The notes below the pieces were generated by a model. It searched no databases. It was not told the origin of the DNA and worked only from the letters and a program-made list of their open reading frames with translations. A stretch of 64,000 nucleotides of DNA from Escherichia coli (lineage in GTDB: Bacteria > Pseudomonadota > Gammaproteobacteria > Enterobacterales > Enterobacteriaceae). Position 1 is the first letter of the stretch. The number at the start of each line of letters is the position of its first letter. Shown piece after piece: positions 28,817 through 29,032 of the stretch. The stretch lies in the NCBI RefSeq assembly GCF_003790525.1, contig NZ_CP033635.1. One strand, written 5' to 3'. The position numbers were made by a program, and so were the translations under genes.

Positions 28817-29032
28817 TTAGTTAGAGTTAATTAGCTTATCAATCTCTGCAAGAGATAAAGCTGTCACCTCTGCAACGTCTTCCCGAGACATTCCTTTACT
28901 CAGAAGACGCTGGGCCAGTCTTACCTTCTGGAGTCCCTCTTTATATCCCTTCTGAAATCCCTTCTGAAATCCCTTCTCTTCAAACCACTGCGCCAACGTC
29001 TGCCAGGTTTCTCTCCGTGTCTTTATTTCCAT
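28817..29032 (-). CDS. Stand-alone small ORF (71 aa) homologous to the C-terminal tail domain of RpnC/YadD
   Basis: MEIKTRRETWQTLAQWFEEKGFQKGFQKGYKEG...LSKGMSREDVAEVTALSLAEIDKLINSN aligns with the RpnC tail (TLAQWFEEKG...LSKGMSREDVAEMANLPLAEVDKLIS); AAGGGA Shine-Dalgarno 5 nt before ATG. Confidence 0.55.
   Translation of the reverse strand: MEIKTRRETWQTLAQWFEEKGFQKGFQKGYKEGLQKVRLAQRLLSKGMSREDVAEVTALSLAEIDKLINSN
28947..28982 (-). repeat. In-frame 12-nt tandem repeat (cccttctgaaat x2 plus a partial unit) inside the orphan tail ORF
   Basis: Direct reading; encodes the QKGF-QKGF-QKGY repeat. Confidence 0.8.

Follow-up and report, generated by a model that had tools for sequence, protein, structure and literature searches.

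rpnCSs, a stand-alone second copy of the antitoxin gene rpnCS downstream of rpnC in Escherichia coli, and its repeat-length mismatch with the neighbouring RpnC

The small open reading frame (ORF) that lies directly downstream of rpnC in the Escherichia coli DNA described here is rpnCSs, and this identity is secure. The gene is real and already known, and since the copy has been published, it adds no new kind of element. The window, by which we mean the whole stretch of 64,000 nucleotides that was analysed, is 100% identical to E. coli SMS-3-5 (NC_010498.1). As a stand-alone second copy of rpnCS, rpnCSs is rather likely to be a diverged specificity variant which exchanges sequence with the rpnC tail. 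The modest addition made here is that toxin and copy differ in the length of their repeat segment in 19 of 20 paired haplotypes and recombine with each other, which leads to the hypothesis of an orthogonal cassette as opposed to that of a back-up antitoxin.

Rpn nucleases, together with the antitoxins encoded inside their genes, have only recently been recognised as a toxin-antitoxin and anti-phage system, for which a separately encoded copy of the tail represents a natural experiment in the uncoupling of antitoxin from toxin. In all rpn genes an internal start gives rise to a small protein, RpnS, that corresponds to the C-terminus, and the toxic full-length nuclease (RpnL) is blocked by RpnS; RpnAS and RpnBS block their cognate RpnL (PMC10400941). 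Specificity is set by a region of four-residue repeats in the first helix, and it has been reported that neutralisation is lost when either RpnCS or RpnC has one repeat more and returns once the two match (PMC10400941, Fig. 4D). For the rpn genes of K-12, internal initiation has been demonstrated with Ribo-RET as well as with SPA-tagged small proteins (PMC10400941; 10.1101/520783). RpnS can also be encoded by a separate gene, as exemplified by ypaA (rpnESs) downstream of rpnE, whose SPA-tagged product was detected as a protein (PMC10400941) and which had been noted as an independent gene in an earlier retapamulin ribosome-profiling study (10.1101/520783).

The name rpnCSs was given by Zhong et al. 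in 2023 (PNAS 120:e2307382120; PMC10400941, section 7, Fig. 2I) to the second copy of rpnCS, the gene of the intragenic antitoxin. These authors described the existence and phylogeny of RpnCSs, which clusters with RpnCS, and its variation by four-residue repeats, and they noted that strains can lose an Ss gene when it is deleted or becomes fused to the N-terminal region of rpn (PMC10400941). A commentary (PMC10400984) also describes the second copy and suggests a decoupling of toxin and antitoxin. The first-pass annotation of this DNA had regarded a separately encoded tail gene as not described; this has to be corrected, as the gene is named in PMC10400941, appears again in PMC10400984 and has a RefSeq protein (WP_000404130.1). 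In the literature search, no paper other than these two was found to mention rpnCSs and none to test its function, and searches by the protein accession or locus tag retrieved nothing. Compared with the rpnCSs of Zhong et al. (PMC10400941), the allele of the window, with 71 residues and a variable segment of 22, shows no difference in kind.

In window coordinates, and according to the ORF list and RefSeq, panB is followed by panC (27884-28735, plus strand), then by rpnCSs and rpnC on the minus strand and by panD (from 30295, plus strand). The gene rpnC (29101-30021) encodes the full-length PD-(D/E)XK recombination-promoting nuclease RpnC-L of 306 residues, which matches TIGR01784 with 279.7 bits. 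Inside it lies the intragenic rpnCS frame of 66 residues (29101-29301, minus strand), which begins with ATGATG at 29301-29296 and has GGGAGGGGAG upstream at 29314-29305. A strain of the K-12 arrangement has exactly the same sequence in this stretch, and from the identity to K-12 we infer that internal initiation of rpnCS occurs here. The rpnCSs ORF (28817-29032, minus strand; ORF list, BLASTP and RefSeq CDS) has an ATG start and 71 codons, and its product is a paralogue of the RpnC C-terminal domain. The Shine-Dalgarno sequence (U)AAGGGA was read at 29037-29043 on the minus strand; AAGGGA (29042-29037) leaves a gap of 4 nt to the ATG, and reading of a UAAGG core leaves 6 nt. The coordinates, the ATG and the ribosome-binding site (RBS) of an AAGGGA-preceded ORF of 71 codons downstream of rpnC, as reported at first pass, were all verified.

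The two genes are separated by a 68-nt spacer (29033-29100, minus strand) without a predicted terminator, whose fold is no more stable than that of shuffled sequence (z +0.39). A promoter and terminator scan, whose counts were at chance level, gave no minus-strand promoter for rpnCSs and no terminator. With no terminator between them, rpnCSs is probably co-transcribed with rpnC and rpnCS on a shared transcript. The spacer contains the direct repeat CCAGATAATT, which occurs twice, and on the plus strand (29063-29091) a sigma-70-like ATAACA-17-GATAAT element directed antisense into the rpnC tail, which is a pattern match only, from a scan whose total count was at chance level. Between the convergent panC and rpnCSs, RNA folding gives a G+C-rich hairpin (28741-28769; -24.8 kcal/mol, z -1.74), which is kept in both K-12-type and Ss-carrying loci and lies 3' of rpnC in K-12 and 3' of rpnCSs here. 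The Rfam scan returned only a Fluoride riboswitch with an E value of 0.97, far below the gathering score.

The homology of the small ORF to the RpnC tail, proposed in the first-pass annotation, is borne out by BLASTP, in which the rpnCSs product aligns with RpnC residues 235-306 with 40 of 72 identities (56%, E 6e-20). Both proteins contain the motifs named there, TLAQWFEEKG, LSKGMSREDVAE and L(S/P)LAE(I/V)DKLI. At the DNA level the tail regions of rpnC and rpnCSs are 81% identical, and the homology extends about 35 nt beyond both stop codons. The flank thus duplicated is found in a first copy directly 3' of the rpnC stop (about 29075-29100) and in a second copy (TAAGTTGTCTACGATATGAA...) at 28790-28816 on the minus strand, as located by alignment of the tail regions. 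The internal repeats differ, again as had been claimed: Tandem Repeats Finder (TRF) gives a period of 12 nt in each, with 2.8 copies at 100% match encoding GFQK-type four-residue units in helix 1 of rpnCSs (28945-28977, minus strand) and 6.1 copies of RQEV type in rpnC/rpnCS (29198-29270, minus strand).

The spacer from the panC stop (28735) to the rpnC stop (29101) measures 365 bp in the window, whereas K-12 MG1655 (147870 to 147944) has 73 bp, and both values agree with those given at first pass. When SMS-3-5 is aligned with a strain of the K-12 arrangement, about 290 extra bases appear, which consist of the second tail copy, the second short 3' flank and the 68-nt joint. The RpnC proteins of the two arrangements are 92% identical and their differences are nearly all in the tail. 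Upstream of TLAQWFEEKG the two copies part, with RDRETGGESMM in RpnC and MEIKTRRETWQ in rpnCSs, and owing to this divergence the start codon and RBS of rpnCSs are to be considered new in the copy and not the internal start of rpnC. The alignments show that rpnCSs originated by an old tandem duplication of the last ~70 codons of rpnC together with ~35 nt of 3' flank, and the copy gained its own RBS, its own ATG and a new N-terminus of 11 residues.

The place of the small protein in the family is recognised by a match to TIGR01784 at positions 212-273 of 273 (E 5e-11), with a score that stays under the cutoff for the whole protein, as that of a fragment would, and by a precomputed Pfam assignment to PF27070 (HTH_Rpn_C) that is marked weak. 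A local Pfam-A scan of the 71 residues gave no domain at E<=0.001 (the best E value, 0.013, being noise). DUF4351 (PF14261), the Pfam family which according to PMC10400941 annotates separately encoded RpnS genes of some species, did not match the protein, not even among the weak Pfam-A hits. PADLOC (PADLOC-DB 2.0) assigned neither the small ORF nor RpnC to a family, and its 2023 library may lack Rpn. Since rpnCSs is encoded apart from rpnC, follows it directly on the same strand and has its own start, it corresponds to the Ss subclass.

A profile built from 33 homologues matched RpnAS (7th0_A) in the PDB over nearly the full length, although weakly (E 0.023). An AlphaFold2 (AF2) model of moderate confidence (mean pLDDT 72.5) has helices at residues 6-20, 24-45, 50-57 and 61-69, that is, a long broken first helix and two short helices, in agreement with the published description of RpnAS (PMC10400941). 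If the model is right, rpnCSs would share with RpnAS (structure 7TH0), RpnBS and RpnCS a long repeat-bearing dimerisation helix followed by two short ones. The repeats vary in number between strains, sit in the first helix and start at residue 22, outside the published range of 8-20 because of the 9 extra N-terminal residues of rpnCSs. When the model was compared with the PDB by Foldseek, the matches were no more than generic helix-turn-helix folds with E values above 1. The PDB search with the single sequence matched only the designed repeat proteins 8vd6 and 7mwr, which were set aside, and reached RpnAS (7th0) only when the profile was used. Residues 37-69 fit each unit of 8vd6 ("CAP REPEAT") better than any natural solved structure, and the whole sequence matches it with an E value of 1.7e-10, which probably reflects a consensus-like sequence rather than biology.

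From these features the product of rpnCSs would be small and helical, its long first helix carrying variable four-residue repeats and leading into a helix-turn-helix-like bundle of the Rpn C-terminal type. By homology with RpnAS, RpnBS and RpnCS it may dimerise through helix 1, and it may bind an RpnC-type C-terminal domain of matching helix length and so block the nuclease. An antitoxin role of RpnCSs is in this sense plausible. The intragenic RpnS proteins are translated inside the toxin gene, and since their internal start lies within that gene, their repeat number always equals that of the toxin; rpnCSs, in contrast, stands apart as a gene, and the repeat segments of copy and toxin evolve independently.

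The two copies were compared in 43 loci, comprising contigs with different Ss variants and complete genomes across the identity range, in which both tails were read and the variable segment of each copy was taken as the part between WFEEKG and LSKGM. These loci contain 20 distinct pairs of RpnC and Ss haplotypes, and the two segments are equal in only one (28/28) and mismatched in the other 19, with differences from -8 to +32 residues. In the window, RpnC has a segment of 28 residues and Ss one of 22, and the difference of 6 does not correspond to a whole number of repeats. Single Ss alleles are found beside RpnC segments of 28 and 32, 32 and 36, 28 and 36, or 36 and 52 residues, so that the RpnC alleles next to the same Ss allele differ by one, two or four repeats and the repeat number of the toxin evidently changes without a corresponding change in the downstream copy.

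It is in this regard that the idea of a back-up antitoxin has to be weighed, according to which RpnCSs restrains the neighbouring RpnC-L in addition to RpnCS or in its place, with an antitoxin supply uncoupled from translation of the toxin. The idea draws on the 56% identity to the RpnC tail with a nearly identical helix-turn-helix part, on the position directly adjacent to rpnC on the same strand with no terminator between, on the antitoxin activity shown for RpnS proteins (PMC10400941), on the decoupling by a second copy suggested in the commentary (PMC10400984) and on the one haplotype group with equal lengths. It is opposed by the helix length mismatch in all the other haplotypes, including the 6 residues here, by the shifts in RpnC repeat number beside an unchanged Ss allele, by repeat residues which differ in kind (GFQK vs RQEV) and by the published loss of neutralisation upon a mismatch of a single repeat (PMC10400941). 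Given the mismatch and that experiment, RpnCSs is expected not to neutralise the adjacent RpnC-L in most strains, the length rule coming from one published experiment with K-12 RpnC with or without one repeat, while other repeat residues may behave differently. These comparisons raise doubt that RpnCSs neutralises its neighbour, and we consider the back-up role possible but doubtful. With 22 against 28 residues, the main brake on the neighbouring RpnC-L would be the intragenic RpnCS and not RpnCSs, and the mismatch, as read from the two tails, argues against a simple redundancy of rpnCSs with the intragenic antitoxin. Another Rpn-type tail that might be the true partner was looked for among the 1160 six-frame ORFs of the window, where only the two expected matches were found.

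Sequence exchange between the two copies, the second element of the favoured reading of a diverged specificity variant, is documented by several alleles. In strain E28 (locus L046) the rpnC tail ends in the Ss-type "...LINSN" and is followed by an 81-nt spacer without a second copy; this spacer is the one normally located 3' of Ss, and L046 is the fusion state mentioned in PMC10400941. Mosaics among the database proteins join an RpnCS N-terminus (MMTLAQ...) to Ss-type repeats and C-terminus, as in P0015, P0024 and P0028, or an Ss N-terminus (MEIKTRRET...) to RpnC-type repeats, as in P0031, P0059 and P0069. The Ss C-terminus of locus L008 resembles RpnC-type tails (86-89%) more than other Ss tails (77-79%). 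Such fusion and mosaic alleles indicate that the two copies recombine.

These same alleles (L046 with its Ss-type tail on rpnC, the mosaics and the RpnC-type C-terminus of L008) could also be explained if rpnCSs were chiefly a reservoir of tail cassettes, a homologous donor or acceptor that resets the tail specificity of RpnC and whose protein may matter less; the reported loss of Ss by deletion or fusion (PMC10400941) and the several structural states of the locus across E. coli point in the same direction. A pure DNA donor, however, needs neither RBS nor start codon nor open frame, and these are kept in 1555 genomes; the ratio of nonsynonymous to synonymous polymorphism (pN/pS) is below 1, and tandem paralogues are expected to recombine whatever their function. 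We therefore deem a mainly donor role unlikely. Neither the back-up nor the donor role is mutually exclusive with the favoured reading, in which rpnCSs would encode an expressed small protein of RpnS type, a specificity variant in exchange with the rpnC tail and not a matched brake on its neighbour.

A more speculative proposal, which seems to us rather unlikely, is that RpnCSs is an orthogonal module and not a spare antitoxin, being either an archived tail cassette or a free helix-turn-helix dimer that serves a separate role. Were it an archived cassette, swaps into rpnC would reset the specificity of toxin and antitoxin in an arms race with phages; were it a free dimer, it might act, for example, in regulation of the locus or as a decoy for a phage factor. 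The orphan C-terminal cassettes of cdiA and rhs offer a comparison, as they are displaced modules downstream of a main gene which can recombine into it; they encode toxin tips accompanied by immunity genes and in most cases have no start of their own. By analogy, an alternative C-terminal module lies downstream of rpnC, where fusion and mosaic alleles occur. Unlike those cassettes, rpnCSs belongs to another protein family, has its own RBS and start and resembles the antitoxin part.

The closest parallel is ypaA (rpnESs; b4543) of K-12, which, like rpnCSs, duplicates an Rpn tail as a gene of its own, immediately 3' of its parent and on the same strand. The two proteins are 38% identical, and in ypaA too the length of the repeat region differs from that of the parent tail, being longer than in RpnE by one four-residue block. 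Unlike rpnCSs, ypaA arose independently from rpnE, whose product is named in the K-12 RefSeq record as an inactive nuclease-like protein. Moreover, ypaA begins 12 nt after the stop codon of its parent vs 68 nt for rpnCSs, and it starts at the equivalent of the internal start without a new N-terminal extension, whereas rpnCSs has one. At the rpnE/ypaA locus of K-12 (L003, 4905-6002), RefSeq flags ypaA as a pseudogene despite the reported protein.

Whether rpnCSs behaves as a gene can be judged from its conservation. Its homologues range from 57 to 77 residues in steps of four with the frame kept, although a repeat unit of 12 nt would preserve the frame in any case. Seven loci representing six different Ss protein alleles show hardly any variation in the RBS, the start and the first 17 codons, and none in the Shine-Dalgarno sequence; no Ss allele read, nor that of E. 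marmotae, has lost the frame, the start codon or the RBS. Among nine rpnCSs alleles, which are few, non-independent and affected by gene conversion, pN/pS is 0.38 in the C-terminal part and 0.58 in the N-terminal part, in comparison with 0.19 in the rpnC tail, and these values suggest moderate constraint on rpnCSs. That the protein is made would be favoured, indirectly, by the conserved RBS and start, by pN/pS below 1 and by the SPA-tag detection of its K-12 analogue ypaA (PMC10400941).

The same values enter into the view of rpnCSs as a functionless remnant, a decaying by-product of tandem duplication at a recombination-prone locus, since purifying selection would be weaker than on the rpnC tail. 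This view is also consistent with the absence of the gene from about 71% of complete E. coli, K-12 included, with no known consequence, with the RefSeq flags (ypaA as a pseudogene, some rpnCSs copies as partial) and with an IS3-family element that splits rpnCSs from rpnC in some strains. On the other hand, decay is at odds with the intact frame, start and RBS of all Ss alleles read including that of E. marmotae, with pN/pS values that remain below 1, with the fact that two "partial" copies translate as full ORFs and with the translation of ypaA in K-12 (PMC10400941), and a mere remnant appears very unlikely.

The distribution of rpnCSs was determined with a query of 111 nt that runs from the rpnC stop across the spacer into the start of the ORF. 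In this survey of E. coli genomes, which had been proposed earlier together with the K-12 alignment, 1555 of 5426 complete genomes (about 29%) carry the rpnC-rpnCSs junction, all of them on the chromosome, and K-12 is without the second tail. Identity to the query reaches 95% or higher in 1552 of the 1555, and at least 80% of the 365-nt insert is covered in 1552 genomes. The gene was not found in K-12, W, O26 or O157. The duplication of about 290 bp proposed at first pass is thus real and absent from K-12, but its description as strain-specific does not survive. The presence of the same ORF and spacing in K-12, already annotated, had been named there as what would refute the proposal; the ORF is already annotated, but in this genome, and K-12 lacks it. 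Homologues of the protein are named by their sources as Escherichia marmotae or unclassified Escherichia, and for the E. marmotae-named protein P0058 all three loci read show the order panD-rpnC-ORF-panC. From its presence and position in E. marmotae and its patchy spread in E. coli, the duplication is concluded to be old and to have been lost, or never fixed, in many lineages. The hypothesis of an orthogonal cassette applies to any strain of phylogroup B2 or F.

A coding sequence is annotated at the junction in 30 of 30 records among the matches listed. For SMS-3-5, RefSeq names the product (WP_000404130.1) "hypothetical protein", and the names "RpnC/YadD family protein" and "transposase" are used elsewhere; the handling is inconsistent, with four different treatments. 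In L055 (529-696) and L056 (546-725), PGAP calls rpnCSs partial ("missing N-terminus"), and both can be translated in full from the usual MEIKTRRET start.

Several structural states of the panC-rpnC locus exist across E. coli. In O157:H7 (NZ_CP066759.1; L045, about 735-1032) the panC-rpnC spacer is 298 nt long, with about 220 extra nucleotides between the hairpin and panC that are unrelated to rpnCSs, so that a long spacer is not diagnostic of a second tail gene. In L007 (about 1755-2429), L022 (712-1585) and L028 (1780-2432) the rpnC frame is truncated or split and the rpnCSs ORF is intact; the assembly of L028 has many split genes, and sequencing errors are possible there. In L036 (279-1433) and L037 (1-331), an IS3-family transposase gene (HTH_Tnp_1, rve) lies between rpnC and rpnCSs, and the insertion replaces the first residues of the rpnCSs protein (variant P0022, MEIQGASLQTLAQ...).
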